A stretch of DNA of 56,853 bases from Akkermansia muciniphila (GTDB lineage Bacteria > Verrucomicrobiota > Verrucomicrobiia > Limisphaerales > JADLHS01): the NCBI GenBank assembly GCA_945882065.1, contig CAMCWI010000001.1, forward strand, positions 1 through 56,853, given 5' to 3'. Position numbers and translations under genes: made by a program. Shown here piece after piece: positions 8,254-56,853 of this stretch (position 1 is the first letter of the stretch; each line of letters starts with the position of its first letter). The notes beneath the pieces were generated by a model. The model was given only the letters and a program-made list of their open reading frames with translations. It had not been told where the DNA came from and did no database searches.

Positions 8254-8604
8254 ATGACAGGGATGTAGCGCGAATCGGGTGTGAGTGAAAATGCCTGTCA
8301 ACGCGCGATCTTACTCTTAACCCTATCTCCGGCAGGTGCAGAGAGGATTATGATTATCTTGAGAAGAACAGTTCCCGCGGATTGACGGATAACAAGCACT
8401 TGCATGAAACCCTTCATTTACTCAAGAAGTGAGCCGTAGCCACAGCCTCAAATCCGTGGTTAAAAATTCGTCGCCATCCCGCGATTTCGGGCGTGTCGTC
8501 GCCTCGCTTTGCAAATCCCCTCAACTCTTGGCCACTTTCCGAAAACCCTCCGGGCCGTCTCCAACGCAAACTTCGTTTACAAGAAACAGGAAGTCGCTCA
8601 TCCG

Positions 8605-8967
8605 CTATTCGCCCCTGAAAACCGCGCGCGCGGTGCAGGTTTCGGCAACAACAACCTCAGTCAGCATCGGCAACTTCGGCTTCAGCTTTCGCCAAATCCA
8701 CGCGGCCACGACTTCGCTCGTGGGATTTTCCAAGCCGGGAACCTTGTTGAGATAATTGTGATCCAGTTTTTCCCAGAGCGGTTTGAAGGCTTTCGAAATG
8801 TCGGCATAATCCATCAGCCAGCCAAGCTTGGGATCGCACTCACCTGCGACGACGATCTCCACCTTGAAGCTGTGGCCGTGCAGTCGGCGACACTTGTGAA
8901 CCTTCGGCAAACGAGGCAACAAATGCGCCGCCTCAAACTGAAATGATTTTCTTAGTTCCATCTTCAT
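8605..8967 (-). CDS. queD: 6-carboxy-5,6,7,8-tetrahydropterin synthase (6-pyruvoyl-tetrahydropterin synthase family)
   Basis: The 120-aa product contains FEAAHLLP, CRRLHGHSFKVEIVVAG, GWLMDYADI and LDHNYLN, the classical QueD/PTPS zinc-site and fold motifs. Confidence 0.92.
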   Translation of the reverse strand: MKMELRKSFQFEAAHLLPRLPKVHKCRRLHGHSFKVEIVVAGECDPKLGWLMDYADISKAFKPLWEKLDHNYLNKVPGLENPTSEVVAAWIWRKLKPKLPMLTEVVVAETCTARAVFRGE

Positions 8968-8979
8968 AAAATATTCAAC

Positions 8980-9055
8980 CTGCTGGATGTGTGGATTATT
9001 AGATAAGTGGATTTGCTTCTCTGGTAGTCCATCTACTAATCCAATTATCCAGCAG
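8980..9055 (-). other. AT-rich imperfect hairpin of 76 nt between the luxC-like stop and the queD start
   Basis: CTGCTGGAT (8980-8988) pairs with ATCCAGCAG (9047-9055). The inner arm TGGATTATTAGAT (8992-9004) pairs with ATCTACTAATCCA (9031-9043) with one mismatch. No U-tract follows on the transcribed strand, so it is not a canonical terminator. Confidence 0.4.
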
Positions 9056-9074
9056 TCAGCCTATCCGTTTTCCT

Positions 9075-29751: not shown

Positions 29752-29820
29752 TGGAGATGGGCAGACGTGTTGATCGGATGAATGATTCATTTCTAAAAGT
29801 CGGTTCTATTTTTTGATGTT

Positions 29821-33435: not shown

Positions 33436-33469
33436 GGTTTGACGAGTAACGGTGGAGGTCTTCACGAAT

Positions 33470-39899: not shown

Positions 39900-39908
39900 A
39901 ATAGTCTC

Positions 39909-42900: not shown

Positions 42901-43550
42901 GCGCCAAACGAAGCATCATTCACAAACTCATCAGCCTGCTCTGGTGTGGGAGGCAATCCTGTGAGGTCAAGATAGACGCGACGCACCAAAGTGTATTTGT
43001 CGGCGACTGGCGAGGGCTTGAAGCCTTCCTTTTCCAATCGCGCCAGAACGAAGTGATCAATCGCATTTCGCGGCCAAACCCTATCTAAAACCTTCGGCAA
43101 CTTCACCTGCTTCGGCGGAACAAAAGACCAGTGCTCCTTGTATTCTGCGCCTTCAGCGATCCAGCGCTTAAGAATATCCTTTTGCTCAGACGTGAGAGGC
43201 TTCTTCGTTGCCGGTGGCGGCATCATATTCTCTTCGTCTTCGGTGAGAATGCGGGTCACCATTTCGCTCTTGTCCGGCTTACCAGGAATGATCGGAATCT
43301 CATCGGACTTGGCGGGTTTGACAGCTTCGTCGCGAACATCCAATCGTAACTTCGCCTTGCGCGCCGCTTCATCCGGGCCATGACAAGTAAAGCAGTGCTT
43401 CGAAAGAATTGGGCGAACGTCGCGTGTGAAATCAACTTTATCCGCTGAACCCACTGACTTTGACGACGAGTCCACCGCAAAACAGTTCGCCGCCACCAGA
43501 ACCGCGCCCGCACAGCACAACCTGTAAATTAGAAAAGTGAAATTCGTCAT
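39909..43550 (-). CDS. PSCyt1 / PSCyt2 (DUF1549) / two discoidin-like modules / PSD1 (DUF1553) protein
   Basis: Signal MTNFTFLIYRLCCAGAVLVAANCFA. FTRDVRPILSKHCFTCHGPDEAARKAKLRLD is present, with CFTCH encoded at 43380-43394. DUF1549: RRVYLDLTGLPPT...RWLDLARYADTNGYEKD. Central CAQCHTHKYDP. DUF1553: RNPLTSRVVMNRHWEAFFGRGLV...TNTPLQALTLLND. It lies 9 nt upstream of a DUF1501 gene, the canonical pairing. Confidence 0.9.
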   Translation of the reverse strand: MTNFTFLIYRLCCAGAVLVAANCFAVDSSSKSVGSADKVDFTRDVRPILSKHCFTCHGPDEAARKAKLRLDVRDEAVKPAKSDEIPIIPGKPDKSEMVTRILTEDEENMMPPPATKKPLTSEQKDILKRWIAEGAEYKEHWSFVPPKQVKLPKVLDRVWPRNAIDHFVLARLEKEGFKPSPVADKYTLVRRVYLDLTGLPPTPEQADEFVNDASFGAYEKLVDKLLASPHYGERWARRWLDLARYADTNGYEKDRPRSIWHWRDWVINSLNADMPFDEFTLEQLAGDMLPNATQDQIVATGFHRNTMINEEGGIDTLEYRFLSMVDRVHVTSTAWLGLTMACAQCHTHKYDPIQHSEYYRFLAFLNNAVEPTIPVVATDIAEKRKKNQQQVAALEAVLPDKYPLEVKIAWQTPGVALFTSQEGAEGEFLNDGSFRVAGKKPDKDVYTIKLEAGTQRITHVQLEAMPDEKISNGGPGYGAGGNFVLSEFEMEWQEQGESGRPHKIKFESVKADHSQDGLPAENTIDGKHDTGWGIAAKEGKNQRHRHAIFILAEPLELKKPAGITIRLVQNYGGNQLLGRFRISLGNELPESFVSEERRRELRDQGFQKWIKTQLPNVATWTQLRPVAVTSSAPILTIQEDNSVFATGDFTKSDNYTLVFRNLPVGLKAIRLEMLPDERLPKSGPGSVDHEGPEGDFWLSSLKVKSDGMDVVLTNASESYASEKNNAAKAIDDDLQSGWSVNGGQGKTHNAVFQFSQDVTSTSELRLEMVCEKYYASGLGRFRVWVTAEDNAKASGLDNDAVASLVKLQREEKLDSLIAKTNASPERELLFKQFERLSPDYARSRREIEKLRKEAPEFSTTLVMRERPAGNERPTFRHHRGEFLQPKEEVTAGVPAFLPQLPKKSPKDRIALAKWLVSAKNPLTSRVVMNRHWEAFFGRGLVRTTEDFGFQGESPSHPELLDWLAVEFSKQGWSQKKMHKLIVMSATYQQASDVTPELRERDPSNVLLTRGPRLRMDAEMVRDATLVASGLFSDKIGGPSVYPPQPAGVTSEGTYGALDWKTSDGPDRYRRGLYTFAKRTAPYAMTATFDGPSGEACLARRERSNTPLQALTLLNDPAFLEFARALGKMAANTDGDDSKRVDLLVRRCLTRPVSEDEKTKLAQFYQTQLARFSNGELKVAEILDVKEGDRLNEQAAWATVARVLLNLDEAITKS

Positions 43551-43557
43551 GACACCA

Positions 43558-44316
43558 TCACTTCAGCGTTTTGATTCGGATGTTCTTGAACTGAATCCTC
43601 ATCGGCGGGCCCGCATGGACCTGCAACGCCAGAATGCCACCGCGCGCAGACTTTGCCTCCTGTTCATCCGTCACATCCACCGTCAACTTGCCATTGATAA
43701 AATGTTGGAGATGATCCCCCTGAGCGATGACCACGTAATCGTTCCAGTCGCCATCCTTGATCACCGACTGGATCTCACTCGACACGCCGACTGATCCCGT
43801 CACTTCGATCTTGTGCTTCCCGGGTTTCTCCGCATCGTCACGAATCACAACCTTCTGGCCGCGCTCGGCAAGAATACCGCGTCCGCCTTCCTCGTAGAGA
43901 ATGCCGGAGTATTTCTTACCAACCTCCATGTCCGCTTGATAGCCATGCACCACGGAATGCCCCTTGTCATTGCTACGATACTGGATGCCAGAATTTCCCC
44001 AATCACTCTGGAAGCGATACGACAGACGTAACTCGAAATTTTCCACCATAAGATTGGTGTCCTTATCCTGTGCGATTAGAAAATTATTTCCCTTCGCCGG
44101 ATTGTTTATGGAAGTTGTGCCTGTGATTGCACCTTGCTCCACCGACCAATGATTCGTGCGCCCGGCCCAACCGCCGAGATCCTTGCCGTTGAAAAGAGAT
44201 TTGAAGCCAGGTTCAACCTCTTGCGACATGAGTGAACTGTTCAGCAAAGTCAGTGCGGCTGTGAGCGCAATGACCCAGAGAAGTTTGCCTGAAACGACGT
44301 TGGCGGATGTTTTCAT
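43558..44316 (-). CDS. Secreted stand-alone DUF1080 protein
   Basis: ATG at 44316 gives MKTSANVVSGKLLWVIALTAALTLL. The track start is at 44349. FKSLFNGKDLGGWAG...GNSGIQYRS...GILYEEGGRG...ILALQVHAGPPMRIQFKNIRIK is present. The stop lies 7 nt before the PSCyt gene start. Confidence 0.85.
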   Translation of the reverse strand: MKTSANVVSGKLLWVIALTAALTLLNSSLMSQEVEPGFKSLFNGKDLGGWAGRTNHWSVEQGAITGTTSINNPAKGNNFLIAQDKDTNLMVENFELRLSYRFQSDWGNSGIQYRSNDKGHSVVHGYQADMEVGKKYSGILYEEGGRGILAERGQKVVIRDDAEKPGKHKIEVTGSVGVSSEIQSVIKDGDWNDYVVIAQGDHLQHFINGKLTVDVTDEQEAKSARGGILALQVHAGPPMRIQFKNIRIKTLK

Positions 44317-44707
44317 AGTTTTGTTACGGCTCTTGTTAATCGAATTCACGCTCCAAGTCCACCCTCACAAACAAAGCCTAGGGAGACCGCCGTATTCAGA
44401 TGTTTCTTTGCTCGCGGTTATTCAGGAATTCACCTGAGCGTTTTCAGAGACACGCACATATCTCTTACTTCTCGCTAAATTCTAAAGCGACACAGTGCAT
44501 TTCAATCGCGATGAGATCGTTTTTAGGGCGGAACATCTAGCTGCACAAATTGGAAACTTTTTCTACTGGCTTTGGTGAACACTCCACACGACAGACGGTG
44601 TATCAAATCCTTTGAGACCTTCATCACCCTAAAACACTGCTCAGTTCACTAACCGCACCGCAACCTGTCAAACAAGACTTGTTGAAGCGGGGGAAAATGG
44701 ATTCCCT

Positions 44708-46518
44708 GTGATGAATTCAATCATGCAGCACAAACTAAAACAGCTTTCATTGTCATTCTGCCTCGTATTCGTTTTGATTGTTCGCGCCGCTTTCGCAACG
44801 GATCAACCTCAATGGGGCGAGGCTTGGACGCGCAACATGGTTTCCAAGGAGCGAGGATTGCCAGATTCATTTGATCCCAAAACCGGGCAGAACATCAAGT
44901 GGACCGGCGCGTTTTTGAATCAATGACCTCAAGCGCGGTTTAATTACGCTACAAGGTCGGCGGGCATTGTTGTTTTTTATTTTTTATTCGTGTGCCGGTT
45001 TTCTGCTGTTGGTTTTCTTCCTGACGTCGGCGGTGCTGGGCAAGTTTCTTGACGCGTCGTTGCTCGACGATGTCTGGCCGCAGGCCGTCATGGGCTTGTT
45101 GCGGGGGGGGCCACGCCGCTCGGAACACAAACACATTCAACGCCGGTCATCGCCGGTGGCCGGGTTTATATCGGCACGAACAACGGCGAGCCGCACGATC
45201 CGAAACATGCGGGTGATCGCGGCGTACTCATGTGCCTCGACGAAAAGACAGGCGCGTTACTCTGGCAACTCGTCGTGCCCAAGCGCGATGAAGACAACTA
45301 CATGGATTGGCCGCACATGGGCATGTCCTCCACTGCGACAGTTGAAGGCAACCGCGTTTATCTCGTGGACAATCGCGGGGCTGTGGTCTGCCTTGATGTC
45401 AAAGGCATGGCGAACGGCAACGATGGCCCGTTCCGTGATGAAGCCGGCTACATGACATCTCCCTCAACAACAAACGCGCCGCGCCAACAAATCGGCGCAG
45501 AGATGCGTCCCGAAATGTCGAGACCGCCGGTTGATGGGAAACTACTTCAACCCGGCCCGCTCGACGCGGACATCATCTGGAAATTTGATCTGGTCGCGGA
45601 CGCGGGAATCTGGCTGCACGACGCCGCGCACAGCTCCATCCTCCTACAACATGGCAATCATCTTTATCTAAGCACCGCCAACGGTGTGGATAAAACGCAC
45701 AAACGCATCCGCGCGCCTGACGCACCGAGCCTCGTGGTGATTGACAAGCACACTGGGCAGCTTCTTGGCCGTGATGACGAGCACATTGCCACAAATGTTT
45801 TCCACAACACCTAGGCATAGCCATCGCTCGGAAAGGTGGACGGACGCGAACTTGTTTTCTTCTGCGGCGGGAATGGAATGGTGTATGCCTTTGAACCCTT
45901 GCGAAAATCTCCGCCACAAGGGGAGGTTCGTCATTTGAAAAAAAGTGTTCCAGTTCGACTTCGATCCCAACGCACCAAAGACCGACATCCACAAGTTCAG
46001 CACCAATCGCCGTGAAGGCCCTAGTAACATTCACGGGATGCCAGTTTTCAAACACAACCAACTCTTCGTCGCTGGCGGCGGCGACCTCTGGTGGGGCAAG
46101 AACGAGGCGTGGCTCAAGTGCATTGACGCCACCAAGACCGTCGACATCACAACCAGCGGACTTGCCTGGTCGTATCCAGTCGAGAAGCACGTCATGTCAA
46201 CGGCGGCGGTAGCGGATGAGTTGGTTTTCATTGCAGACTGCGGGCGGAAGTTTCATTGCGTGGATGCAAAGACCGGCAAACCATATTGGACACATGAGAT
46301 TCAAGGTGAGGCGTGGGCCTCTCCCTACGTGGCCGACGGCAAGGTTTATCTCGGCACGCGCAGCGGAAACTTTTATGTCTTCGCTGCGAGCAAGGAAAAG
46401 AAAGTTCAAGCGGCACTGGAAGTTGACCACGCCCATCAGCGCCACAACCACGGCGGCAAATGGCGTGCTCTACGTCGCCACCATGACGCATCTCTACGCC
46501 GTGCAAAAACCCCGGTGA
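44708..46518 (+). pseudogene. PQQ-like / BamB-like beta-propeller repeat protein inactivated by at least five lesions
   Basis: Fragments 44708-44926, 45110-45814, 45821-45944, 45945-46428 and 46429-46518 together read as one propeller protein (THSTPVIAGGRVYIGTNN, GVLMCLDEKTGALLWQL, NRVYLVDNRGAVVCLD, ELVFFCGGNGMVYAFEP, ELVFIADCGRKFHCVDAKTGKPYW, GKVYLGTRSGNFYVF, ANGVLYVATMTHLYAV). Lesions: a 204-bp unrelated block at 44906-45109, in-frame TAG codons at 45812-45814 and 45818-45820, a +1 shift in the A7 run at 45938-45944, and a +1 shift near 46428. Confidence 0.82.
44906..45109. other. 204-bp block of unrelated sequence interrupting the PQQ-propeller pseudogene, origin unknown
   Basis: The flanks join to give KWT|ATPLGTQTHSTPVIAGG. 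The block has two in-frame stops, an atypical T-rich tract (tgttgttttttattttttattcg) and ends in a G8 run (45103-45110). I found no terminal inverted repeats or target duplication. Confidence 0.5.
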
Positions 46519-46654
46519 AGCGCGGGATTGTTTGAAGTCGCTCCGAGATCAACAACCTCGTTTGCCATCTACTAAATAAAACCGCGCACAGTTGTCGCCA
46601 AAGATTCCATCATGCTCAGTCGCTGAAAATTTCTGCGCCCAGCTATATCTGTTA

Positions 46655-47974
46655 CTATTGACCAAGAGCATTGCGAAACTCCGGATGTGTCCGTTTAAGA
46701 ATTGTTGTGATACGGGAGCGTTCTTCAACGGTAAGGTGCGCATAGCGCGTGTCAGGATTGGCCGGATTCAGAGCATGAACCAACCGCGAATACAATCGCT
46801 GCTTCAATTGGACTGGTAGAGATAGAAAACACTCCGAGTAGATCATGTAACTGCACCGGTTTTTGAACAGCCGACCCGCCAGATGAAAATCTTTCAGCGA
46901 ACCCGCATCGCTTGAGCGGGGTGCATCCTTGCAAAAAACATTTTGAAACGACTCGTCTCCAACAAGCCCGTCAGGCAGTTGAGCTTCATCCTTGAAAAGT
47001 AGAGCGTCCAAAACTTCCTGCGCGGCGGCGTCGAATACATGTTTGACGCTCTCGTAAGTCAACTCCTCCGTCACCGGTTCTTTCAACTCAAATTGCAGAT
47101 TCTTCTGATAGGCGAGCATCCGGCGACAATCCATCGAGGCTCGCGTGAGCGCATTCTGCATGGTCGTTTGATGCTCGAAAACCAGCAGCGCGATGATGTC
47201 ACTGCCTGATGTGAGATAAGCCTTGGTCTGAAAGAAATCCGATAAGTCTGTGATGTTCGCGCCACGCTTTAAGTTCACGACCAGTTCACCACTTTTATCC
47301 TGAGCAAACACATTTCCTCGATGCAATGCCTTGCCGTGCTTGCCCGTCACATACCAACCCGCCCAACGATTCGTGAACGGCGTACGGTAGTCCACCACTT
47401 CTGAACCGAACCGAAACAACGGCTCTCCAGTTTCGTCAGTGAAAACTGAACGCACAAAGACACCCGGAACTCCACGAACAAACAGCCCGCCGTGACAAGT
47501 CATGCAATTGTTGTCGCGGATAAATTGCGGCTCTGCGGAATTCGGATCAAAGCTATAAAAAACCGGGCCAAGCAGAGGATCAATCGTGGTCACCTCTATC
47601 AAACTACCCGGCACCCAGCCCACATAAGCCGTGTCGGAAAAATAGATCGCACGGGGATGGTTGGGGCTGATGCTTTGACGCTGAAAGCTCGTCTTGGAAA
47701 AGACCAGCATCTGGCTCTCGACAGGTATCTCCAACTCCTGCAACAGACGCTGCACGATTCTTCTTCCGCCACCTGTCCACTTAATCTCCCCCGAAGCCAC
47801 TCGGGATTGCAAGCGCACCACAGCATCACTCGGCTTTGTTGCTGAGTAACTGACCGGCGGTTGTTCATACGACTCGACTCCTTGCGCGCAGACCTTGTTC
47901 GTGGCCAGTAGCGCAAGAGTCATCGTTGTAACAATCGCCAATCTTTGGATTACTATGATTCCGGAGCGTCGCAT
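46655..47974 (-). CDS. Secreted conserved PVC-type hypothetical protein with a single CxxCH heme-binding motif
   Basis: Signal MRRSGIIVIQRLAIVTTMTLALLATNKVCAQ. VFSKTSFQRQSISPNHPRAIYFSDTAYVGWVPG is present. CMTCH is encoded at 47492-47506. The ORF is 439 aa and intact. Confidence 0.7.
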   Translation of the reverse strand: MRRSGIIVIQRLAIVTTMTLALLATNKVCAQGVESYEQPPVSYSATKPSDAVVRLQSRVASGEIKWTGGGRRIVQRLLQELEIPVESQMLVFSKTSFQRQSISPNHPRAIYFSDTAYVGWVPGSLIEVTTIDPLLGPVFYSFDPNSAEPQFIRDNNCMTCHGGLFVRGVPGVFVRSVFTDETGEPLFRFGSEVVDYRTPFTNRWAGWYVTGKHGKALHRGNVFAQDKSGELVVNLKRGANITDLSDFFQTKAYLTSGSDIIALLVFEHQTTMQNALTRASMDCRRMLAYQKNLQFELKEPVTEELTYESVKHVFDAAAQEVLDALLFKDEAQLPDGLVGDESFQNVFCKDAPRSSDAGSLKDFHLAGRLFKNRCSYMIYSECFLSLPVQLKQRLYSRLVHALNPANPDTRYAHLTVEERSRITTILKRTHPEFRNALGQ

Positions 47975-48012
47975 TGTCTTTCAGCAATCCTAGTCTAGGC
48001 ATTTAGCCGCAC

Positions 48013-48028
48013 ATTGACCTAGGTCAAT
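48013..48028. promoter_or_regulatory. Perfect 16-bp palindrome ATTGACCTAGGTCAAT upstream of the CxxCH-protein gene. Candidate operator.
   Basis: The palindrome centre lies 46 nt upstream of the ATG at 47974. A second palindrome, CCTAGTCTAGG, at 47989-47999 shares the CCTAG half-site. Confidence 0.35.
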
Positions 48029-48320
48029 CTCTTGGTGGTGAACTAGCGTCAGCCACCATTCGCATATCACCGAGCATCGCCTCCAACACACTCATGCCGC
48101 GCGTCGGCACAATGGTGAACGTAAGCCTACCGTTTTTGACGACAACAACGGCAACGCCCTCCTGCCTGCCGCCGTGCAACGTGAGTTTGCTCACGGACCA
48201 ATGCGGACTCTTGGGCGTAATCTTTTCACCGGAAATTTCGAGCGCATCCACGCGCTAATTTCCACTCGCGCTGATCAGTGACTGGCGGAACGGCGCGGGG
48301 GTTTTGGAGATTGTTTTCAT
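48024..48320 (-). pseudogene. N-terminal remnant of an aldose-1-epimerase-like (DUF4432-like) gene with an in-frame TAG and 3' truncation
   Basis: ATG at 48320 gives MKTISKTPAPFRQSLISASGN-TAG(48255-48257)-RVDALEISGEKITPKSPHWSVSKLTLHGGRQEGVAVVVVKNGRLTFTIVPTRGMSVLEAMLGDMRM. The frame ends after about 98 codons, whereas the family is about 350 aa. The family call rests on the L.GG..eGv.vv.v.nG.l.f.v.PtRGm.i pattern only. Confidence 0.45.
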
Positions 48321-48332
48321 TCAGTGATCAAA

Positions 48333-49541
48333 TCAACGCGCGCCAAGATTCTTCAACAGCGCATGGGCACACGCTTCAGCAAAGACTGGATCATTGATCG
48401 CGCAGTCCATCTCCTTCACTTCGATGTCTGTGCGCAATCCAGCTTTCAGCGCGGCGCAAAGCGCGACGTCTGCGGCTGAATCATGAAACGCCCCACCCGG
48501 CGCGCCGATCATGCTGCCGCCGCGCAATGGCAGCAGCACCGTCACTGGGCCGGTGGAGAGGTTGAGTTTTTCGGCCAAGATTGTTCCAAGTTGTTTGCAC
48601 TCCTCGGGCGTCGTGCGCATCAACGTCACTTGCGGGTTGTGCTGATAAAAATTTCTCCCAGCAAATTTCGTGGGCACGGTTTCAGGTGAACCGAAATTCA
48701 CCATGTCGAGACAACCGGTGGAAACCACTGCTGGCACTCCGCACCGTGCGGCAGCTTCGAGTCGCGTCGGGCCAGCGTTCAACACGCCACCGACCAATTC
48801 GTCCGCCCACTCCGTCGTCGTCACATCGAGCACACCGGCTACGAGGCCAGTCTCGATGAGAGATTCCATCGTGCGTCCGCCAGTTCCGGTAGCAGCGAAC
48901 ACGATGACTTCGTATCCGGCGGCTTCGAGGATTTTCCGTGCGTGTTCGATGCACATCGTGGTGTTCCCAAACTGGCTGGCCACGATGATGGGTTTGTCGG
49001 TCGCAGCAGTCACGGGCATCTCCACCATGCCGCAGATGGCACCCGCAGCAGGAGTGAGTAACTGACGCGAAATCCGGTTGAGTCCCGCCACGTCCACGAT
49101 GCTTGGGAACATCACTATGTCCTTCACGCCGACGTAGGGCGCAACGTTCCCGCTCGCCAACGTGGAAACCATCAATTTGGGAAACCCGATTGGCAACGCG
49201 CGCATCGCTGCCGTGGCAATGGCAGTGCCACCGCCGCCGCCTAGCGAGATCACGCCATCAATCTTTTTTTCCTCCGCCAGCTTTGCGAGAATGATCGGCG
49301 CGCCTTGCGACATCGCGGTCACCGACTCACCGCGATCCCGCTTTGCAATCAAAGTAGCGAGGTCAACGCCCGCCGCTTGGGCAACTTCGCTCCGCGTGAT
49401 GTCGGGTTTAAGTTTTGGATCTTCCAACGTGCCGACATCAATGATGAGAACCTTGTGACCTCGCTGGCGAATGAGATCAGCCACAAAACCATGCTCCACG
49501 CCTTTCGTGTCCATCGTTCCGAGAATCGCGATCGTTGGCAT
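48333..49541 (-). CDS. UPF0261 / Tm-1-like ATP-binding domain protein
   Basis: MPTIAILGTMDTKGVEHGFVADLIRQRGHKVLIIDVG, GVISLGGGGGTAIATAAMRALPIGFPKLMVST and VVFAATGTGGRTME are characteristic of the family. Confidence 0.9.
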   Translation of the reverse strand: MPTIAILGTMDTKGVEHGFVADLIRQRGHKVLIIDVGTLEDPKLKPDITRSEVAQAAGVDLATLIAKRDRGESVTAMSQGAPIILAKLAEEKKIDGVISLGGGGGTAIATAAMRALPIGFPKLMVSTLASGNVAPYVGVKDIVMFPSIVDVAGLNRISRQLLTPAAGAICGMVEMPVTAATDKPIIVASQFGNTTMCIEHARKILEAAGYEVIVFAATGTGGRTMESLIETGLVAGVLDVTTTEWADELVGGVLNAGPTRLEAAARCGVPAVVSTGCLDMVNFGSPETVPTKFAGRNFYQHNPQVTLMRTTPEECKQLGTILAEKLNLSTGPVTVLLPLRGGSMIGAPGGAFHDSAADVALCAALKAGLRTDIEVKEMDCAINDPVFAEACAHALLKNLGAR

Positions 49542-49563
49542 AAGCGTCAGAGTTTGCTGGGAA

Positions 49564-52500
49564 TTATTTCACTTCTTTACCCGCAGCCCAGAAGACGGAG
49601 TTTCGCAAGAGTCTGATGTAAGCCGCGTGTTCGTGCGCCGCAGCATCGTGACCAAGCGTGATTCCCACCACCCTGCCCTTTGATTGCTCGACGGTGAAGA
49701 CTTGCGGGAAGTCCTTGTTTTTCGCCTGCGAGTAAGCAGTGGCGAGAACTTTCACGGGTGCGCCCTGTGTATCGGGTTCAAAATAATAAAGCTCGTCCTT
49801 GAGCGTGAACTTTGCCGGCACGCCACGAAGGATCGGATGTTTCGGCTCGATCACTTTCACTTCGAACTCGCCATACTTATCGTGACTCCGTGAACCGCCA
49901 CCAATGAGGTCGCGGTTATACTCAGGCCAATCTTTCCAGTTATACCATAGTCCCGGATGCAGTCCGACGATTCCCTTGCCACTCTTCAGATGTTTGAAGA
50001 TCGCTTCCTTTGTCGCCGCGTTTGTGAACGGCTTGTTGTTGCTGATGATCAAGACATCCACACCAGCGATGACACCAGAAAGATCACCTGTGGGCGTGGT
50101 GTAATTGGCAGTGATGCCGCCCGCCGCGTTCAACGTCTTCACATCTTCCACATTGAACCACCGTTCGAAGTCGTGACTCGATCCGCCGCCGACGATCAAT
50201 GTTTTGATCCCAGCGTTCCATTTGAAGGATGGTGCGGGCGCGACACTCGCTCCGCCGGAAGTCGGGGCGGAACTTGAACCCCCTTCGCCAACCTCTGCCG
50301 TGATGCTGACGAACGTCGGTGCGTACTGGTTGCCGTAACTGGAGATCGTCAATTTCTCGACCATGCCGCGCTTGGTCAGCGGTTTCGCGAAATAGCGGAC
50401 TTGTTTCCCGCCGTTCATGATTTTGTCCAGATTAGCGAGCGCTTCCGAACCGGGCACGTCCACATGCGTTATGTAGTCAGCGATCTCAACTCCGTTTCGC
50501 AGGACGATCTCTTCGGTTGGACCTCCTGCGAAATGAACGATGATCTTTGCGACTGGATCATTCACTTTTCCGCCCGGGAACCCCCAACCCGCAATGCCAC
50601 CCAGGAAATGCAGTTTGGTGACCGGCAACCCCACCTTGACCTCGACTTCCTTCGGATAACTTTGTGCCAGACCAATGCCGCCACGCAGCACGATCATATT
50701 CTTGCCATCAGCCATGCGCTGCGGATTCACCGCATCAAACGGCACATCACGATGCTTGAGCGTGCCCCACTTCTTGAAGCGTATCGATTCATCCCGTGAC
50801 TCGGCGGATTGGTAGAGGCCGCGTGAACTGTTCGCAGTGAACGCGCCCGCGAGATCCAGAATGCGGTAACGCAAATCGTCCGCACAGATATACGCCAGCA
50901 GGTCGCGCAGGTTTTCCGCACCGAGTTGTTCCAATCCATCCGGCATCAATGATCGGCTGTTACTGCGCCGCGACTGGATGTTGTCCTTGCGGACTTCGAT
51001 CTCGCCGGTCTGATTTCGGATCACGACCGAGGTGTTGTTCTCTCGCAGAACAATGCCGTCGTAGCTGAGATCATCCTTCGTCTCGATGCTCACGGTATAA
51101 AAGTTCGGCTCGACGACGCGGTTCGGATCAATGATGTGAACAAGCAACTCTTCGGGTCCGTGAGCGCCCATGCCCGTGAGATTCGGCGCAAAGTCCGCGC
51201 CCTCGGATTTATACTTGTGACAGACGGCGCAGTTCTGCGTGAAGATCTTTGCACCGTTGCCCAGGTTTCCGGCCTTGCTGACCTCGGGTTTTAACTTCGT
51301 GATCAGGCTGTCTTTCTCCTGCTGTTGAGGCCCGCGCAGTTCCGCGATCACTTTGCTCGCGTGATCCGCCACAGCAGCATCAGAGTGCGTGCGCAGGCGA
51401 TACAAATTCGCGAGGCCAAGCATCGCGGGATCAATCTTCCGATCCGCCAGCGCCTTCACCAGCGCTTCCGACCAGTCACTGCGACGGATCAATTGTCCAA
51501 AAGCAACCTCGCGCAGATCGAACGACAGCTTTGGCAATGCGACCAGAAGAGTCTGCCCCACGGCGGCATCACCCGAGTCGCCGAGCGCTTCGATCAATTT
51601 TTTCTGCAACGCCGGACTCGCATCACTGCCCACCACCGCAGAAACCGCAGGTACGATGCTGGGATCGAGCTTGGCAACACCCAGCAGGTTCGCCGCGATT
51701 TGAGCGCGCTCATCATCGGAAACGGATTTGTCTGCGAACCGCGCTTCGGCTTTGACGATGGCGGGTTTCATCGCGTCGCCGACTTCGCCGGCGAAATTCC
51801 AACGAACAATCAATGGCAGCACTGCGCTGGCGGTGGCGTCCGAAGCGAGCAATTGTTTCAATGCTGTGCCGAGTGATGCGTCTGCGGTCGGCTTGATTTC
51901 TTGCTTCAGATTCGCAGCGAGCGATTGCATCGCGAAAACCTTGAGCGAATCCGCGCCAGAGGGTTTTCCAGCAATGGTCACCACTAACGAACGAGCCGCA
52001 TCCGGATTGTTCTGTTGTGCGACCTGCCGAGACAACTGTGAAATCATCCCCGCCATCGAGGAGGCATCTTTGGCGTCCATCGCCGCGCTGACGAACAACA
52101 AAGGTTTCTTGGCAGTGATGGCGAGCGCGGCAGTTTCGAGATAAGGACTCTTCAGCGATGGCCATGCCGCGACGATGGCTTCAGCGAATTCACGATTCGG
52201 TGTAAGCGTTTCGCAGGCGATCAATGCCGCCATTCGGACGCGTTGATCTGGGTCATTGACTAAAGCCCGGACCAATTCCATCGGCGGTTCAACGTTGGAG
52301 TTGTCCTGCTCCGCGCCTATCCGCATGGCGTTCTTGCGGACGACAGCGTCCTTGTCACTGGATGCAGCCACCAATGTCTCTGGCTTGAGCAGATTCAAAT
52401 TGTGCAACACCCACAGAGCCTGCATCCGGCCATAAGCGGTTTTGGCCGATGCTGCTTCGCTTTCCAACGTGGTCGCGTAATCACGCCCTGCCCCTTCACT

Positions 52501-54675
52501 CAACAAACGATTCGCCGTTGTGCGCACCCAACCGTTCGGATGGTCGAGCATCGCCACGAGTTTTGCTGCCTTTTTGGAATTCAGATCAAACGGCGGCAGC
52601 GCGTGGGCTTCCTTGTGCTGGATACGGTAAACACGCGTGAAGTGATGATCACGATCAGGACGCGATGCGGCGTTGCGCGCGCCATGCGCCGGGCCGCGCG
52701 TGTCGTTGTGGACAGCGATCTGGTTATACATGTCCACCAGATACAACGCGCCATCCGGGCCGACGCGGCTGTGGATCGGCTTGAACCAGTAATCGGTGCT
52801 CGTCAGGAAGTGCGTCTCCTTACGGGCTTCTTCGCGGCGACCTTTGTACGTCACGCCGTTCGGATCGAGGAATTCGTGGTGCATCAACCACACGGTCGGC
52901 TCATGGAGGAAGAACGACCATGATGGCCCTTGCCACTTGGTCGGCCACGCGCCGCCGTCATAAATCGTCGCACCCGCCGCGGCTGTCCACGCTCCAACCC
53001 AGTCAATCTGCACATACGGCTGACGGGCTTCTTTGCGCCCGGGAAAAACCTTATTCTCTTCCATGATCGGATTCGCCGAGCGGACTCCAGCCACGCCGGA
53101 GCGGCTGATGACTTTGTCCGGCATAACGACGTGAAGGATGGGCTGACCGCAGGTGGCTGTGCTGAAAAATATCTCGCCGTCCGGCGCGATTTCACAGCCC
53201 CAAGTGTTGCACGCACCGGAAGAAATTTGCTCCAACGCAGATCCGTCAGGACGGAAGCGGTAAATGCCGGCTGATATACGGCCAAATTTCTTCGTGCCAT
53301 CGCCCGATGAAACATCACCGGCGCTATATCCGACTGAGCCGTACACCCAGCCGTCCGGCCCCCAACGCAGATTGCTCGTCACCGAATGCGTGTCGCCAGT
53401 TCCCCAGCCGGTTGATAGCACTTGAAACTTGTCCGCCTTGCCATCTCCGTCCGTATCGCGAATCCAAAGAATGTCCGGTGCTTGCGTAACAATGGCGCCA
53501 TCCTTGTACAACACCACAGAAGTCGCCAATTCCAATCCATCTGCAAAGACGGTTTTCTTGTCCATCACGCCGTCGCCATTCGTATCTTCCAAAATTGAGA
53601 TGCGATCTCGGTTTGCGCGCTTCTCTTTGCCACCGATAGGGAACTCGTTTGGATTCCGCAAACGCCACGGAGTGATCTTGCCGTCGTTCTTGTTGATGTC
53701 GCGCCCGCCAGGATACTCGGGCGTCTCGACGACCCACATGCGGCCTTTCGTATCCCATTCGACGGACATGATTTTCTCAGCGAGCTTTTCATCGGCGACG
53801 AGAGAGATGTTGAACTCAGGATGGAGATTAAATGTTTTGAGTGCGTCTTTCGCGGGAAGCGGTCCGCCGGGCGGATAGAGCAACGAATCGAGTTCTTCCT
53901 TCTTGCAGAATTCATCAACGCTGGTGCGCTTGCCGGCCCATGCGATGCCGCGCATCAAGATCGCGCGATATTGAGGACTGTTGAACACATCAAAATCGTG
54001 GCCGGGCAAACTCACGAAGGCCCGATAGGGTGTTGCGCCGCCTGAAATAGTTTTCTCATAAGTCCAAACCTGGGGGGCGATGACGAAAACGTTGTGAAAG
54101 CTCGTGGCCAATACGCCGATGTCCGGCGCGAGATCCATGTCGTAATAAATTTCGTCCTTCCAATCGAAGTTTGAGATGCCCTTGCTGATGGGGTGATCTT
54201 GATCGACCCAGCAAATGCCGACGTTGCCCTCGAACCACTTCGTCGCTTTGTCTTTGGGCACGTCCGCTGAAGGCCAGCGCCATGCGCCACCGATGGTGGA
54301 CTTGCACCATTCATGTTGATCACCGCTCACCACGCCATCGTGCAAAACCACCAAGCCACCACCGCGTTTGAGGAATTTTTCCAGATCGGCTCGCTGCGTC
54401 CCGGCGATCTTCATCCCGTCCGCCGCGTAGATAATCATCACGTCGGTTTTCTCCAGCTGCTCGGGCTCGGGGAAATCGAGATCGCCCGTGACTTGCATTC
54501 CGCGATCGCCGAGCAGTGTCGTCCACTCCTTGAGAAAGCGGGGATGATCGTGCTGGTTTGGCCCGTGAGTTTTGACGCCACCACGGATGAAGACGCGCAG
54601 AGGTTCAGCCGCAGTCGCTGAAAGCGATGCCACCAAGAGTGCCGTAACGACCAATAAGTTGATTGTCTTTTTCAT
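49564..54675 (-). CDS. Giant secreted fusion of a ThuA domain, a PVC-type dehydrogenase beta-propeller, HEAT repeats, a mono-heme cytochrome c, an unassigned beta-domain and a second ThuA domain
   Basis: ATG at 54675 gives MKKTINLLVVTALLVASLSATAAEP. An upstream ATG at 54732 would add 19 aa before the signal. ThuA-N: LRVFIRGGVKTHGPNQHDH...VVLHDG...LPGHDFDVF. Propeller: FNISLVADEKLAEKIMSVEWDTKGRMWVVETPEYPGG. Heme domain: CAVCH is encoded at 51217-51231, followed by SLMPDGLEQLGAENLRDLLAYI. ThuA-C: IKTLIVGGGSSHDFERW...ELYYFEP...TLGHDAAAHEH. Confidence 0.85.
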   Translation of the reverse strand: MKKTINLLVVTALLVASLSATAAEPLRVFIRGGVKTHGPNQHDHPRFLKEWTTLLGDRGMQVTGDLDFPEPEQLEKTDVMIIYAADGMKIAGTQRADLEKFLKRGGGLVVLHDGVVSGDQHEWCKSTIGGAWRWPSADVPKDKATKWFEGNVGICWVDQDHPISKGISNFDWKDEIYYDMDLAPDIGVLATSFHNVFVIAPQVWTYEKTISGGATPYRAFVSLPGHDFDVFNSPQYRAILMRGIAWAGKRTSVDEFCKKEELDSLLYPPGGPLPAKDALKTFNLHPEFNISLVADEKLAEKIMSVEWDTKGRMWVVETPEYPGGRDINKNDGKITPWRLRNPNEFPIGGKEKRANRDRISILEDTNGDGVMDKKTVFADGLELATSVVLYKDGAIVTQAPDILWIRDTDGDGKADKFQVLSTGWGTGDTHSVTSNLRWGPDGWVYGSVGYSAGDVSSGDGTKKFGRISAGIYRFRPDGSALEQISSGACNTWGCEIAPDGEIFFSTATCGQPILHVVMPDKVISRSGVAGVRSANPIMEENKVFPGRKEARQPYVQIDWVGAWTAAAGATIYDGGAWPTKWQGPSWSFFLHEPTVWLMHHEFLDPNGVTYKGRREEARKETHFLTSTDYWFKPIHSRVGPDGALYLVDMYNQIAVHNDTRGPAHGARNAASRPDRDHHFTRVYRIQHKEAHALPPFDLNSKKAAKLVAMLDHPNGWVRTTANRLLSEGAGRDYATTLESEAASAKTAYGRMQALWVLHNLNLLKPETLVAASSDKDAVVRKNAMRIGAEQDNSNVEPPMELVRALVNDPDQRVRMAALIACETLTPNREFAEAIVAAWPSLKSPYLETAALAITAKKPLLFVSAAMDAKDASSMAGMISQLSRQVAQQNNPDAARSLVVTIAGKPSGADSLKVFAMQSLAANLKQEIKPTADASLGTALKQLLASDATASAVLPLIVRWNFAGEVGDAMKPAIVKAEARFADKSVSDDERAQIAANLLGVAKLDPSIVPAVSAVVGSDASPALQKKLIEALGDSGDAAVGQTLLVALPKLSFDLREVAFGQLIRRSDWSEALVKALADRKIDPAMLGLANLYRLRTHSDAAVADHASKVIAELRGPQQQEKDSLITKLKPEVSKAGNLGNGAKIFTQNCAVCHKYKSEGADFAPNLTGMGAHGPEELLVHIIDPNRVVEPNFYTVSIETKDDLSYDGIVLRENNTSVVIRNQTGEIEVRKDNIQSRRSNSRSLMPDGLEQLGAENLRDLLAYICADDLRYRILDLAGAFTANSSRGLYQSAESRDESIRFKKWGTLKHRDVPFDAVNPQRMADGKNMIVLRGGIGLAQSYPKEVEVKVGLPVTKLHFLGGIAGWGFPGGKVNDPVAKIIVHFAGGPTEEIVLRNGVEIADYITHVDVPGSEALANLDKIMNGGKQVRYFAKPLTKRGMVEKLTISSYGNQYAPTFVSITAEVGEGGSSSAPTSGGASVAPAPSFKWNAGIKTLIVGGGSSHDFERWFNVEDVKTLNAAGGITANYTTPTGDLSGVIAGVDVLIISNNKPFTNAATKEAIFKHLKSGKGIVGLHPGLWYNWKDWPEYNRDLIGGGSRSHDKYGEFEVKVIEPKHPILRGVPAKFTLKDELYYFEPDTQGAPVKVLATAYSQAKNKDFPQVFTVEQSKGRVVGITLGHDAAAHEHAAYIRLLRNSVFWAAGKEVK

Positions 54676-54744
54676 TTGGAAATTGGGAAAACGATTCGTT
54701 AGATTGTGCAAAGAAACCTCACTGACTGCCATAACTCATTCGAG

Positions 54745-55179
54745 TTACGGTTTGCAGACAGGCAGATCCAGTTTCTGACGGAGTGAAGCCCACGGCTCCT
54801 GAGTAGAAACATCCACGATCCCAGGCTCGGCGGCTTTGGCGGGCGATAGAATCGCCAGAAACACGAGCCGCTCGCGATGCGGATTGAAAGTGCCATGCAC
54901 TTCCCCCTTGGGAACCAGCACCATTTCGCCAGGCCCGAGGATGCGATGCTCTTTGCCGATCCACTGTTCAGCGCGACCGGACAAAATATAAATAATCTCT
55001 TCGCGCGTCGGATGCGAATGGAACGGATGCGAGAAGCCCGGCTCCATGTTCGCGCGGACCATCATCAAATCCTGATTCGGAACGATGTCGGAGCGGCAAA
55101 GCCATTCTTCAATCGTCCATGGCGATTGGAAATCCACCTTCTCGGCGGCGGTGACGAAGCGGCGATTTTCGATGCTCAT
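54745..55179 (-). CDS. Cupin-domain protein
   Basis: GFSHPFHSHPTREEIIYILSGRA...GEMVLVPKGEVHGTFN are the two cupin motifs. The product is 144 aa and has no signal peptide. Confidence 0.8.
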   Translation of the reverse strand: MSIENRRFVTAAEKVDFQSPWTIEEWLCRSDIVPNQDLMMVRANMEPGFSHPFHSHPTREEIIYILSGRAEQWIGKEHRILGPGEMVLVPKGEVHGTFNPHRERLVFLAILSPAKAAEPGIVDVSTQEPWASLRQKLDLPVCKP

Positions 55180-55191
55180 AGCTGGATGCGT

Positions 55192-56085
55192 TTATTTTTT
55201 CTTCGCTTTGCCGAACGACTTTGCTGATGGCGCTTTCAACTTCTTGAAATCACGAGTCAGATTCGTCAACGACGCCTCCACACCCATGCGTTCCAAGGAA
55301 CTTGCGCCCACGAAGCCAACTGCATCGGTGTTCTTCAACACTCGATCCGCATCCGCCGGTGTATTGATCGGCCCGCCGTGAGCGAGGAAGAAAATGTCTT
55401 TCCGCACCCGGCTTGCCGCATCAATGATTTCCTGCGTACGTTTGATCGTGAAGTCCCAAGTCACGACGGCTTTCTTCACTCCGATCGAGCCTCCGACCGT
55501 GGTGCCGACATGCGCGATGATGGCGTCTGCACCGACCTTTGCCATCTCAACTGCTTCCTCCGGCGTAGCGACATAGACTACCGAGAACAAATCCATCTTC
55601 CGCGCCAGCGCGACCATCTCAAATTCCTTCTTCACGCTCATGCCGGTCTCTTCCAACACACCGCGAAAGTGACCATCCACGATGGTGTGAGTGGGAAAAT
55701 TATTCACGCCGCTGAAACCCATCTCCTTCACCTTGCCGAGCCAGTGCCACATGCGGCGGCGCGGGTCTGTCGCGTGAACACCACAGATCACAGGCACTTC
55801 CTCGACCACGGGTAACACTTCGTATTCGCCAATCTCCATCGCGATGGCGTTGGCGTCGCCATAAGACATAAGCCCGCACGTAGAGCCATGCCCCATCATT
55901 CGATAGCGCCCGGAATTATAAATGATGATGAGGTCAGCACCACCGCGTTCGATGAATTTGGCGCTGATGCCAGTGCCGGCACCGGCAGCGATGATGGCGT
56001 CGCCCTTCTTGATGGTGCTCATCAAGCGGTCGCGCACTTCTTTACGTGTATAAGGATTACCTTTTCCAGTCCAAGGGTTCGGCAT
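55192..56085 (-). CDS. Phosphoenolpyruvate hydrolase-like TIM-barrel protein (TIM-barrel signal transduction protein, Tm-1 C-terminal-domain homologue)
   Basis: AAGAGTGISAKFIERGGADLIIIYNSGRYRMMGHGS, YGDANAI, GFSGVNNFPTHTIVDGHFRGVLEETGMS and GADAIIAHVGTTVGGSIG are family-defining strings. Confidence 0.88.
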   Translation of the reverse strand: MPNPWTGKGNPYTRKEVRDRLMSTIKKGDAIIAAGAGTGISAKFIERGGADLIIIYNSGRYRMMGHGSTCGLMSYGDANAIAMEIGEYEVLPVVEEVPVICGVHATDPRRRMWHWLGKVKEMGFSGVNNFPTHTIVDGHFRGVLEETGMSVKKEFEMVALARKMDLFSVVYVATPEEAVEMAKVGADAIIAHVGTTVGGSIGVKKAVVTWDFTIKRTQEIIDAASRVRKDIFFLAHGGPINTPADADRVLKNTDAVGFVGASSLERMGVEASLTNLTRDFKKLKAPSAKSFGKAKKK

Positions 56086-56322
56086 AATGCGATGAGTTTA
56101 TTCAGACTAACGATTGATTAACAAATTCAAAAAATTATGGGCAATGATTGGCAGCCCGGAGATTTTACGCAACACCCCGTTTTTGAACTGCTAATTATTA
56201 AGACTCGCCCAACACGGTGACGGAGCGCGGCACTCACGCCAGACTCCCATCACTCTGTTTGAGAGCTGATCACCCGCCAAAAAAAATATACAAATCCGCC
56301 CGGCTCGGTGTCTATGAGGTGA

Positions 56323-56853
56323 GTGAATGACGGACAGACACCGCCGTGGTGCGAACGATTGTATCACGCGAAGGCGACCGAGCTGGGTCTTTACGGTCGC
56401 GCGCTGGGTCTTTCCCATGCGGAAGCCGAGGACGTGGTGCAGGAAACTTTCCTGCGTCTGCTGCAAATGCCCGATGCCCCGGAGCGGCCTGAGCATTACT
56501 GCGTGCGAAGTTTTCGCAATCACGCGTTGAATCACAAACGCTCGTTGTGGCGACGTGTGACGCGCGAGTTTGAATCATCCCGTTGGTTTGAACGTGCCTT
56601 GGATGAATCTGCCGACGAACGGGCGGCCATGCGTTGCCTAGGTGAACTGCCCGTGCCGCAGCGCGAAGTGATCGTGCTCAAGCTCTGGCACGACTACACG
56701 TTCGAGGAGATCGGTGAATTGCTGGAAGTCTCGCCACACACGGCTGCGGGGCGTTATCGCTACGGTCTGGAGAAACTCCGGGCCTGCATGAAAGGAGAAT
56801 TGCATGAAAGACATGAACACGTTGGAGGAACAGTTGCGTTCCTGGAAACCGCG
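56323..56853 (+). CDS. ECF-type sigma-70 family RNA polymerase sigma factor. No stop codon occurs before the window end.
   Basis: The GTG at 56323 directly follows an in-frame TGA and has gaggt upstream. Region 2: AEDVVQETFLRLL...FRNHALNHKR. Region 4: LPVPQREVIVLKLWHDYTFEEIGELLEVSPHTAAGRYRYGLEKLR. The ORF is missing from the track because it is open at the window edge. Confidence 0.82.
   Translation, partial: MNDGQTPPWCERLYHAKATELGLYGRALGLSHAEAEDVVQETFLRLLQMPDAPERPEHYCVRSFRNHALNHKRSLWRRVTREFESSRWFERALDESADERAAMRCLGELPVPQREVIVLKLWHDYTFEEIGELLEVSPHTAAGRYRYGLEKLRACMKGELHERHEHVGGTVAFLETA
56804..56853 (+). CDS. Start of a probable anti-sigma factor (partial)
   Basis: The ATG at 56804 is preceded by aaaggag (56791-56797) and gives MKDMNTLEEQLRSWKP..., a typical anti-sigma N-terminus. 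It overlaps the end of the sigma frame. Only 16 codons are visible. Confidence 0.4.
   Translation, partial: MKDMNTLEEQLRSWKP

Follow-up and report, generated by a model that had tools for sequence, protein, structure and literature searches.

A Tm-1-type UPF0261/TIM-barrel pair linked to a cupin and a secreted cytochrome c protein in a conserved bacterial gene module

The genes for the two halves of a Tm-1-type module, a UPF0261 protein and a TIM barrel of the PEP-hydrolase-like family, lie toward one end of a 56,853-nucleotide stretch of DNA (the window; positions 1 to 56,853 of contig CAMCWI010000001.1, assembly GCA_945882065.1, deposited as Akkermansia muciniphila and placed by GTDB in the Limisphaerales of the Verrucomicrobiota), with the genes for a cupin and for a secreted protein of about 1,700 amino acids, here termed the giant, standing between them. 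The locus raises the question of what, if anything, joins a cytoplasmic pair to a secreted heme protein, which the first-pass annotation of the window had proposed to work on one substrate stream as a sugar-oxidizing system. The comparison with related loci points, with a probability of about 0.6, to a conserved catabolic module of the Planctomycetes-Verrucomicrobia-Chlamydiae (PVC) bacteria that couples a secreted cytochrome c-linked oxidoreductase to the trio of cupin, UPF0261 and TIM proteins. That the four genes form a functionally coupled unit is in itself very probable.

Recurrence and inheritance of the arrangement

The four genes and a gene remnant that follows them are confirmed by open reading frame (ORF) listing and profile searches as minus-strand features at the positions first annotated, and the intergenic gaps recomputed from the coordinates and junction sequences agree with the earlier values of 12 nt (TIM/cupin), 69 nt (cupin/giant), 22 nt (giant/UPF0261) and 12 nt (UPF0261/remnant); the cupin/giant gap shrinks to 12 nt if a longer, 1722-aa giant start is used. 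The module genes have the marks of an operon, lying on one strand with these gaps and with no terminator-like site at the junctions, and we infer that they are co-transcribed. Counts of terminator-like and promoter-like sites equal the shuffled expectation and are uninformative on internal signals either way. A metagenome assembly in ENA holds the identical contig (L001) with the same gene calls.

Related loci were gathered from two sides. Searching one genome for each GTDB species with the window UPF0261 gives 80 loci at 64-87% identity, almost all titled Verrucomicrobiota, one Planctomycetota and a few with titles that look mislabelled; the window proteins were run against these by tblastn and the gene calls anchored on the matches. 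A metagenome scan with the giant gives 78 loci, which were sorted by identity to the window giant. The metagenome-assembled genome records of the verrucomicrobial-type contigs L005, L026, L038, L048, L064 and L068 are titled Bifidobacterium, Klebsiella, Akkermansia muciniphila or Cyanophyceae, which are likely mislabels.

The order TIM-cupin-giant-UPF0261 recurs in the verrucomicrobial genomes of four other species and in about 25 metagenome contigs, and this recurrence in many independent genomes makes the arrangement more than chance. The four genomes are the closest GTDB species representatives, with UPF0261 proteins 84-87% identical to that of the window. Where the giant is at least 72% identical, each of the 18 loci whose upstream sequence can be read has co-directional TIM and cupin genes, and of 18 with a readable downstream side 16 have UPF0261. 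At 50-71% giant identity one or more of the three small genes accompany the giant in about 13 of 32 loci: the full set is present in L129, and four contig-truncated loci (L121, L127, L151 and L153) have TIM and/or cupin before the giant and an unreadable downstream side. Partial sets in this range comprise cupin-giant only (seven loci) and TIM-giant only (four loci). The linkage of giant and small genes is frequent, not obligate. Within the main clade the pairwise distances of the proteins are correlated (TIM-UPF0261 0.84, TIM-propeller 0.93, UPF0261-propeller 0.87; 0.82-0.93 across TIM, UPF0261 and giant domains), a sign that the module has been co-inherited as a unit. A 245-aa DUF559/restriction-endonuclease-like gene separates TIM from cupin in three loci that otherwise keep the gene order (L005:3608-4342, L083:515-1261, L092:5006-5560) and looks like a selfish insert tolerated within the cluster.

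The same four genes occur in a permuted order, giant-UPF0261-TIM-cupin, in L122, L139, L147, L148, L152 and L160, whose giants are 47-50% and UPF0261 proteins 52-53% identical to those of the window, and in L160 the successive junctions measure 0, -4 and -4 nt. In a neighbor-joining tree of 99 UPF0261 sequences the window-type loci form one clade and the permuted loci a deep outgroup, with L027 (giant-UPF0261, the contig ending within the giant) and L068 (an orthologous giant divergent from UPF0261) placed elsewhere. The separation of TIM and UPF0261 that the first-pass annotation pointed out is the gene order of a single clade and not a defining trait; the deep clade keeps UPF0261 and TIM adjacent. 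Nor are the intervening genes a strain-specific insertion, the outcome it had named as refuting its proposal, because the module is conserved across a verrucomicrobial clade and a Planctomycetota-like clade. Its expectation that the two halves are normally immediate neighbors fails for the Verrucomicrobiota: of the 51 verrucomicrobial UPF0261 loci that have 1.5 kb or more of sequence on each side, 10 have a co-directional TIM directly upstream or directly downstream, 2 have one on the other strand no more than 1.5 kb away, and in 3 the TIM gene lies beyond cupin and giant.

The permuted loci have a regulator of their own. The gene divergent from the giant encodes a 584-596-aa protein with an N-terminal PF09370 TIM barrel, a sigma-54 AAA+ domain and a Fis-type helix-turn-helix, whose closest homologues with a source name are from Planctomycetota (83%), those farther away being from Verrucomicrobia, Pirellulales, Poribacteria, Sumerlaeia and Binatia. 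A sigma-54 -24/-12 motif (TGGCAY-N5-YTGCW), of which there are only 8 in all 166 loci, precedes the first operon gene by 41-52 nt in L122, L148, L160 and L162. The activator stands opposite giant-UPF0261-TIM-cupin in L160. In L162 (the complete 7.4-Mb genome CP087563.1) it is opposite UPF0261-TIM, followed by cupin, AP_endonuc_2, two GFO/IDH/MocA genes and LacI; in L164 opposite UPF0261-TIM, followed by 2-hydroxyacid dehydrogenase, AP_endonuc_2 and GFO; and in L165, a Sumerlaeia metagenome-assembled genome, opposite UPF0261-TIM-GFO and a 1046-aa ThuA-HEAT protein, with a cupin on the other side. AP_endonuc_2 proteins are xylose-isomerase-like barrels. Set against the stand-alone TIM, the sensor barrel retains the phosphate-loop-like motifs GGP and G.S..ER and has lost YNSGR, AH(V/M)G and the His of HGGP, reading LNASY, LNLG and FGGP in their place, as would suit a ligand-binding, probably non-catalytic derivative.

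The loci L161, L163 and L166 have the TIM-sensor activator and a short (226-253 aa) stand-alone TIM only, with no UPF0261, and may represent a second, different type of regulon. These activator-TIM pairs (L161:3762-6186, L163:7311-9745, L166:10001-12525) lie beside LGFP/amidase or GH25 cell-wall genes, and in L161 a sigma-54 motif is directed at the amidase gene.

Accessory genes of the window-type clade include a major facilitator superfamily (MFS) transporter just upstream of TIM in nine loci, a cytoplasmic GFO/IDH/MocA gene upstream of the transporter and AraC regulators divergent from TIM. In L082, L102, L132 and L158 a GFO/IDH/MocA protein with a twin-arginine (Tat) signal (RRKFL, RRSFL) is encoded directly upstream of the giant.

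The 80 verrucomicrobial UPF0261 loci were scanned with hidden Markov models built from gathered sequences. Outside the main clade, immediate neighbors of UPF0261 include cupins in seven loci and stand-alone ThuA in L015, L025 and L061, following UPF0261 in L015 and L025; further neighbors are 3-keto-disaccharide-hydrolase-domain genes (L030, L055, L056, L073, L036) and other DUF7133...cytochrome c giants (L019, L020, L028, L029, L037, L041). In L056 and L073 the order is TIM-UPF0261-Dabb-(3-keto-disaccharide-hydrolase-DUF7133-HEAT-cytochrome c). Again outside the main clade, 15 domains of the ThuA, DUF7133, PVC cytochrome c and 3-keto-hydrolase types lie no farther than 1.5 kb from UPF0261, where 2.5 would be expected (Poisson P about 6e-8), the expected count being taken with the same models from the 4-10 kb flanks of the same loci, an internal near-versus-far comparison used because these families are common. 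In relatives the UPF0261-TIM pair is also found with GFO/IDH/MocA proteins, xylose-isomerase-like barrels, ThuA, cupins, MFS transporters and AraC regulators. The Dabb (stress-responsive alpha/beta barrel) gene encodes 102 aa and lies at L056:11284-11589 and L073:11214-11519.

The encoded proteins

The domain assignments first made for all module genes are borne out by Pfam and NCBIfam profile matches. In the giant, whose residues are numbered here by the 1722-aa ORF, inspection places a Sec signal peptide at M20 (MKKTINLLVVTALLVASLSATA/AEP), and because a textbook signal peptide begins there the 1703-aa start, already preferred by the first-pass annotation, is the more plausible. The signal peptide is followed by ThuA, a β-propeller (DUF7133) resembling soluble glucose dehydrogenase (sGDH), a HEAT region, a cytochrome c domain, a domain of 190 aa and a second ThuA. 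Pfam matches cover ThuA twice (PF06283, 190 bits over an N-terminal and a C-terminal stretch, above the gathering score), DUF7133 (7.7e-116), HEAT_2 and cytochrome c, and the protein passes the NCBIfam PVC-type heme models TIGR02604 (220 bits, cut-off 122.2) and TIGR02603 (96.8 bits, cut-off 68.15). The ThuA-like structure 4E5V matches its ThuA at 1.2e-8, and a sequence-profile search of the PDB with the 190-aa domain gives nothing informative. An AlphaFold2 model of the propeller made with 30 homologues has a pLDDT of 84.6 and a pTM of 0.88, and its top PDB matches in Foldseek are sugar dehydrogenases dependent on pyrroloquinoline quinone (PQQ), namely 3A9G, 3DAS, 7CGZ, 2ISM, 6JT5 (the PQQ domain of a fungal pyranose dehydrogenase) and sGDH 1CQ1; structures of the sGDH/Asd type match with E values of 3e-8 to 5e-7, TM scores of 0.45-0.58 and 12-15% identity. 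At E<=1e-10 the propeller has 1,335 homologues in metagenome protein collections.

The UPF0261 protein matches PF06792 and PF23189 over their full length (221 and 298 bits, cut-offs of 27) and NF002674 with 565 bits (cut-off 335). In the PDB it matches Tm-1 at 1e-77 and MarK (9MPY) at 8.7e-64, the latter end to end over residues 2-399. The nucleotide-site lysine of the D-T-K motif, K20 in Tm-1 and K16 in MarK, lies in the segment MDTKG (residues 10-14) and is invariant in 99 of 99 UPF0261 sequences. Structures of Tm-1 bind ATP analogues, and MarK, a stand-alone UPF0261 protein, phosphorylates acetovanillone and related phenols with conversion of ATP to ADP; no catalytic activity had been reported in the family before (PMC12624787). 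Only G195 and H304 of the MarK acetovanillone pocket are kept in the window protein, and a MarK-like phenol kinase was rejected as its function on the pocket residues. The equivalent of MarK His219 is residue 216 (window 48894-48896), where 17 of 18 giant-linked UPF0261 proteins have Ala and 52 of 76 other verrucomicrobial ones, like Tm-1 and MarK, have His, a dimorphism that may mark a change of substrate or mechanism. To judge from these sequence features, the window protein is probably an ATP-dependent kinase for a different, more polar substrate. The earlier remark that the role of the pair is undefined is partly outdated, given the description of MarK in 2025 as an ATP-dependent aromatic kinase (PMC12624787).

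The TIM barrel is the most conserved and slowest-evolving product of the four genes, with orthologues 85-97% identical within the module and invariant GGP and GASS..ER motifs. It matches PF09370 at 1.2e-103 (346.5 bits, cut-off 33.8) over profile positions 2-267 of 267 and PDB 2P10 (Mll9387), an unliganded structural-genomics protein, at 4e-78. PEP mutase-like chemistry, hinted at by the family name, is unsupported, as the PDB profile search returns 2P10 and very weak matches to nitronate monooxygenases. The cupin matches Cupin_2 at 2.4e-17 with an HxH...E...H metal motif, and its weak PDB relatives include quercetin dioxygenase, DMSP lyase, KdgF and a sugar-phosphate isomerase. In many loci it accompanies the giant, UPF0261 or both, and some of these have cupin and giant alone or cupin and UPF0261 alone. 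By inspection none of the TIM, cupin and UPF0261 proteins has a signal peptide.

Feature coordinates and flanking genes

Table 1. Module genes, parts of the giant (residues by the 1722-aa ORF) and flanking features of the window
Feature	Position	Strand	Remarks
TIM-barrel gene, PF09370 PEP_hydrolase-like, COG5564 type	55192-56085	-	297 aa, cytoplasmic
Cupin gene, single-domain metal cupin	54745-55179	-	144 aa
Giant gene	49564-54675	-	1703 aa from M20; alternative ATG at 54732 gives 1722 aa
Giant, N-terminal ThuA	about 53863-54603	-	
Giant, β-propeller DUF7133	52609-53850	-	sGDH-like
Giant, cytochrome c domain	50887-51270	-	
Giant, sole CxxCH heme c attachment motif	51217-51231	-	CAVCH, residues 1168-1172, within the TIGR02603 match (residues 1155-1282)
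Giant, 190-aa domain	50293-50865	-	without family assignment
Giant, C-terminal ThuA	49585-50145	-	
UPF0261 gene (Tm-1 N-terminal type)	48333-49541	-	402 aa, cytoplasmic; ATP-binding, kinase-like
DUF4432 (aldose-epimerase-like) N-terminal remnant (stub)	48024-48320	-	in-frame stop
Secreted 439-aa protein gene	46655-47974	-	no family match; signal peptide by inspection
Intergenic region between ECF sigma and TIM genes (divergent)	56086-56312		likely promoter region of the module
ECF-type sigma factor gene	56320-56853	+	divergent from TIM gene; runs off window end
Second DUF7133...cytochrome c protein and two 3-keto-disaccharide-hydrolase-domain proteins	27139-29790; 31981-33531; 43558-44349	-	

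On the upstream side of the module (Table 1) the gene of the extracytoplasmic function (ECF) sigma factor has Sigma70_r2 and Sigma70_r4_2 matches. A sigma-70-like match (TAGACA-18-TATATT, 10/12) lies on the minus strand at 56314-56285, in a region whose promoter-like matches are not above shuffled expectation. The sigma-54 motif is absent from 56086-56312 and the window has no adjacent activator gene, the ECF sigma gene being there instead; an Rfam scan of 45000-56853 at E<=0.1 gives no RNA element.

Downstream, the stub, which had been counted with the operon, has its in-frame stop at codon 22, and its longer piece covers positions 1-37 of the 304 of the DUF4432 model with 26.8 bits against a cut-off of 32.5. 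By tblastn no related locus except the identical contig L001 has a homologue, and the stub was rejected as part of the module, being a remnant specific to the window. The secreted 439-aa protein matches no Pfam or NCBIfam model, and of all the loci only L029 encodes a homologue, 36% identical and at an unrelated place; as it is not conserved, its gene was likewise rejected as a module member. It is the last co-directional gene, the genes farther downstream converging on it, and may be the last of the transcription unit here.

The window encodes further proteins of the same kinds, a second, shorter DUF7133...cytochrome c protein and two 3-keto-disaccharide-hydrolase-domain proteins, one of the two carrying a polysaccharide-lyase fn3 domain. 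At 38439-43550 on the minus strand, directly downstream of a 3-keto-hydrolase-domain gene, a 1213-aa PSCyt1/PSCyt2/PSD1 protein is followed by a DUF1501 protein, a classic Planctomycete-type pair, and at 788-5875 on the plus strand lies the gene of a 1695-aa protein that has bacterial TSP3 repeats and, at its C-terminus, a DUF1800 domain.

Relation to known systems and reading of the module

Each component of the module belongs to a known family, and the locus is not a categorically new system. The tomato protein Tm-1 and its Tm-1-like relatives contain the same two domain families, UPF0261 and the PEP-hydrolase-like TIM barrel called TBST, fused in tomato, and the ATP-site lysine and the LDMVNFG segment are conserved in the window UPF0261. 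In the window the genes are separate, with the cupin gene and a 5.1-kb gene for a secreted protein between them, and Tm-1 is known as a virus inhibitor that acts by binding and has no tie to any periplasmic oxidoreductase. The two families are reported in plants and fungi too (PMC5028733, PMC8963296), and COG5441 and COG5564 co-occur phylogenetically with a STRING score of 0.988 in fungi (PMC8963296). MarK (Saro_1862 of Novosphingobium aromaticivorans) shares the UPF0261 fold with the window protein over its full length, including the D-T-K lysine at the position of the activating E16K change; unlike the window UPF0261, MarK has no TIM partner and lies within the acvCDEF operon.

For the secreted part the nearest described system is ThuAB of Sinorhizobium and Agrobacterium, in which ThuA and a GFO/IDH/MocA partner form 3-keto-disaccharides and which is described as cytochrome c-dependent; a periplasmic 3-keto-glycoside route is discussed for Bacteroides BT2157-2160 (PMC8121099). 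The module resembles ThuAB in the association of ThuA with GFO/IDH/MocA, the periplasmic cytochrome c-linked setting and the 3-keto-disaccharide-hydrolase domains of sister architectures. It differs in that a single 1,700-aa chain joins two ThuA domains to a propeller, HEAT repeats and a heme domain, that the ThuEFGK transporter is not present with it and that a UPF0261/TIM/cupin link belongs to no described 3-keto pathway. The PQQ sugar dehydrogenases (sGDH, Asd/YliI) and fungal pyranose dehydrogenase include the best structural matches of the giant's propeller, and a propeller dehydrogenase joined to a cytochrome for electron exit would be a design in common, whereas there is no detectable sequence similarity and the giant binds its c-type heme in a domain specific to the PVC bacteria (TIGR02603). 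For the DUF7133-HEAT-cytochrome c family a single biochemical study was found in the literature; it concerns Lac161_ORF7 (AGW45552), from a Chthoniobacter-like soil cosmid, which is reported to cleave lactose with a Km of 1.8 mM (bioRxiv 10.1101/047167); it shares the TIGR02604/HEAT/TIGR02603 core with the giant, lacks ThuA domains and has a reported activity that is hydrolytic. Full-text literature searches return no described link of the Tm-1-type pair to ThuA/DUF7133 cytochrome c proteins and no description of a TIM-sensor activator controlling such an operon, and none of the eight papers in which UPF0261 is named deals with either. The four-gene combination is an undescribed variant of a catabolic cluster that would join periplasmic oxidation to cytoplasmic processing.

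A flow of chemistry through such a cluster can be sketched tentatively, and we infer all catalytic activities, the substrate and the direction of metabolite flow in it. The giant, exported by Sec, would oxidize a carbohydrate-like substrate (a glycoside, sugar or cyclitol) in the periplasm via its sGDH-like propeller and ThuA, perhaps assisted in some relatives by the Tat-exported GFO/IDH/MocA partner, and the electrons would leave through its own c-type heme. The oxidized product or a fragment of it would enter the cell, where close relatives encode the MFS transporter just upstream of TIM, to be isomerized or opened in the cytoplasm by the metal cupin and phosphorylated by UPF0261 on a hydroxyl or enol with ATP, as MarK does, after which the TIM barrel would bind and convert the phosphorylated intermediate. 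In the Planctomycetota-like relatives the sigma-54 activator, with its paralogous and probably non-catalytic TIM sensor, would switch the operon on in response to the same class of ligand. The more specific proposal that the UPF0261/TIM pair and the cupin are the missing cytoplasmic arm of a PVC oxidative pathway for keto-sugars or keto-cyclitols, UPF0261 trapping an enol or keto product as a phospho-intermediate, the TIM barrel converting it and the paralogous barrel sensing it, is speculative and rather doubtful. As to the earlier description of the system as sugar-oxidizing, the fold of the propeller and the context of Tat-exported GFO/IDH/MocA, 3-keto-disaccharide-hydrolase and xylose-isomerase-like proteins support it, and the chemistry itself stays a conjecture.

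Several observations weigh against the catabolic reading. Of the seven residues of the MarK acetovanillone pocket five differ in the window UPF0261 (T196N, H219A, F283M, I285N and H348I), so that a phenolic substrate is not implied and kinase activity on another substrate is an extrapolation. The likeness of the propeller to the six-bladed sGDH type is at the fold level only, with generic propellers starting at about 1e-6 and within about 30-fold in E-value, and a sequence-profile search of the PDB with the propeller finds no dehydrogenase and nothing informative. Apart from 2P10 and its own family, the TIM barrel has nitronate monooxygenases as its sole sequence relatives, at marginal similarity. 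These genomes are rich in DUF7133, 3-keto-hydrolase and related families. About 19 of the 32 giants at 50-71% identity have no small gene nearby, and 36 of the 51 verrucomicrobial UPF0261 loci show no TIM in the retrieved flanks, which extend up to 10 kb. Among the close orthologues of the giant, L088 and L090 are the only exceptions, with no UPF0261 within 6 kb downstream. In these two loci (giant at 6001-11037) TIM-cupin-giant is kept.

The linkage could reflect co-regulation without a shared pathway, for example under carbon limitation or in response to a plant or algal signal, or the TIM and UPF0261 proteins could be a regulatory pair sensing ATP and a metabolite. TIM barrels of the PF09370 family are indeed sensor domains in sigma-54 activators, tomato Tm-1 acts by binding and not by catalysis (PMC12624787), and the adjoining regulators vary from an ECF sigma factor in the window to AraC proteins and the sigma-54 activator. 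The stand-alone TIM, however, keeps the YNSGR, AH(V/M)G and HGGP motifs lost in its sensor paralogue, which suggests an enzyme, and the translationally coupled junctions of L160 together with repeated independent pairings of small genes with giants fit one pathway better, which leaves this explanation improbable. It is quite unlikely that the trio makes, activates or salvages a redox cofactor, PQQ-like or other, for the propeller or ThuA of the giant. Such a role would suit the resemblance of the propeller to PQQ-dependent dehydrogenases, the lack of PQQ genes in the window and the loci examined and the location of the trio in the cytoplasm with the giant exported, yet the accessory genes are of a catabolic style (MFS transporter, AraC regulators, a sigma-54 activator with a ligand-sensing TIM domain) and UPF0261-TIM pairs lacking a giant are found with GFO and AP_endonuc_2 genes. 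Many DUF7133 paralogues also have no trio nearby, and TIM and UPF0261 occur in plants and fungi, whereas the DUF7133 homologues with a named source are all bacterial, in searches of which none was aimed at eukaryotes.

There is very little likelihood that a cupin-giant cassette was inserted by historical accident into an ancestral TIM-UPF0261 operon and has been carried along with no functional meaning. The exact order of the window does belong to a single UPF0261 clade within the Verrucomicrobiota, and the DUF559 inserts in L005, L083 and L092 are tolerated; against this, the same four genes stand in another order with their own regulator in a distant clade, whose 47-53% identity argues against recent transfer, independent pairings occur in L027, L068, L056, L073 and L165, and all four genes are intact at up to about 50% divergence. 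The functional tie of the cytoplasmic Tm-1-type pair to a secreted heme protein, the central proposal of the first-pass annotation, is supported by the co-inheritance of the four genes and by the permuted clade under its TIM-sensor sigma-54 activator, and the coupling of secreted oxidoreductase and cytoplasmic trio in a catabolic module is the best explanation.

The Tm-1-type UPF0261/TIM pair is spread over bacteria, archaea, fungi and plants, and its known activities amount to a single kinase reaction and the inhibition of virus in tomato. The module ties two large and poorly understood families into one testable shared context. If the catabolic reading is true, it would give a physiological role to the Tm-1-type module, from bacteria to plants, and to the abundant PVC-type DUF7133/ThuA heme proteins, and it could reveal how abundant soil and freshwater bacteria feed electrons from carbohydrates directly into cytochrome c.

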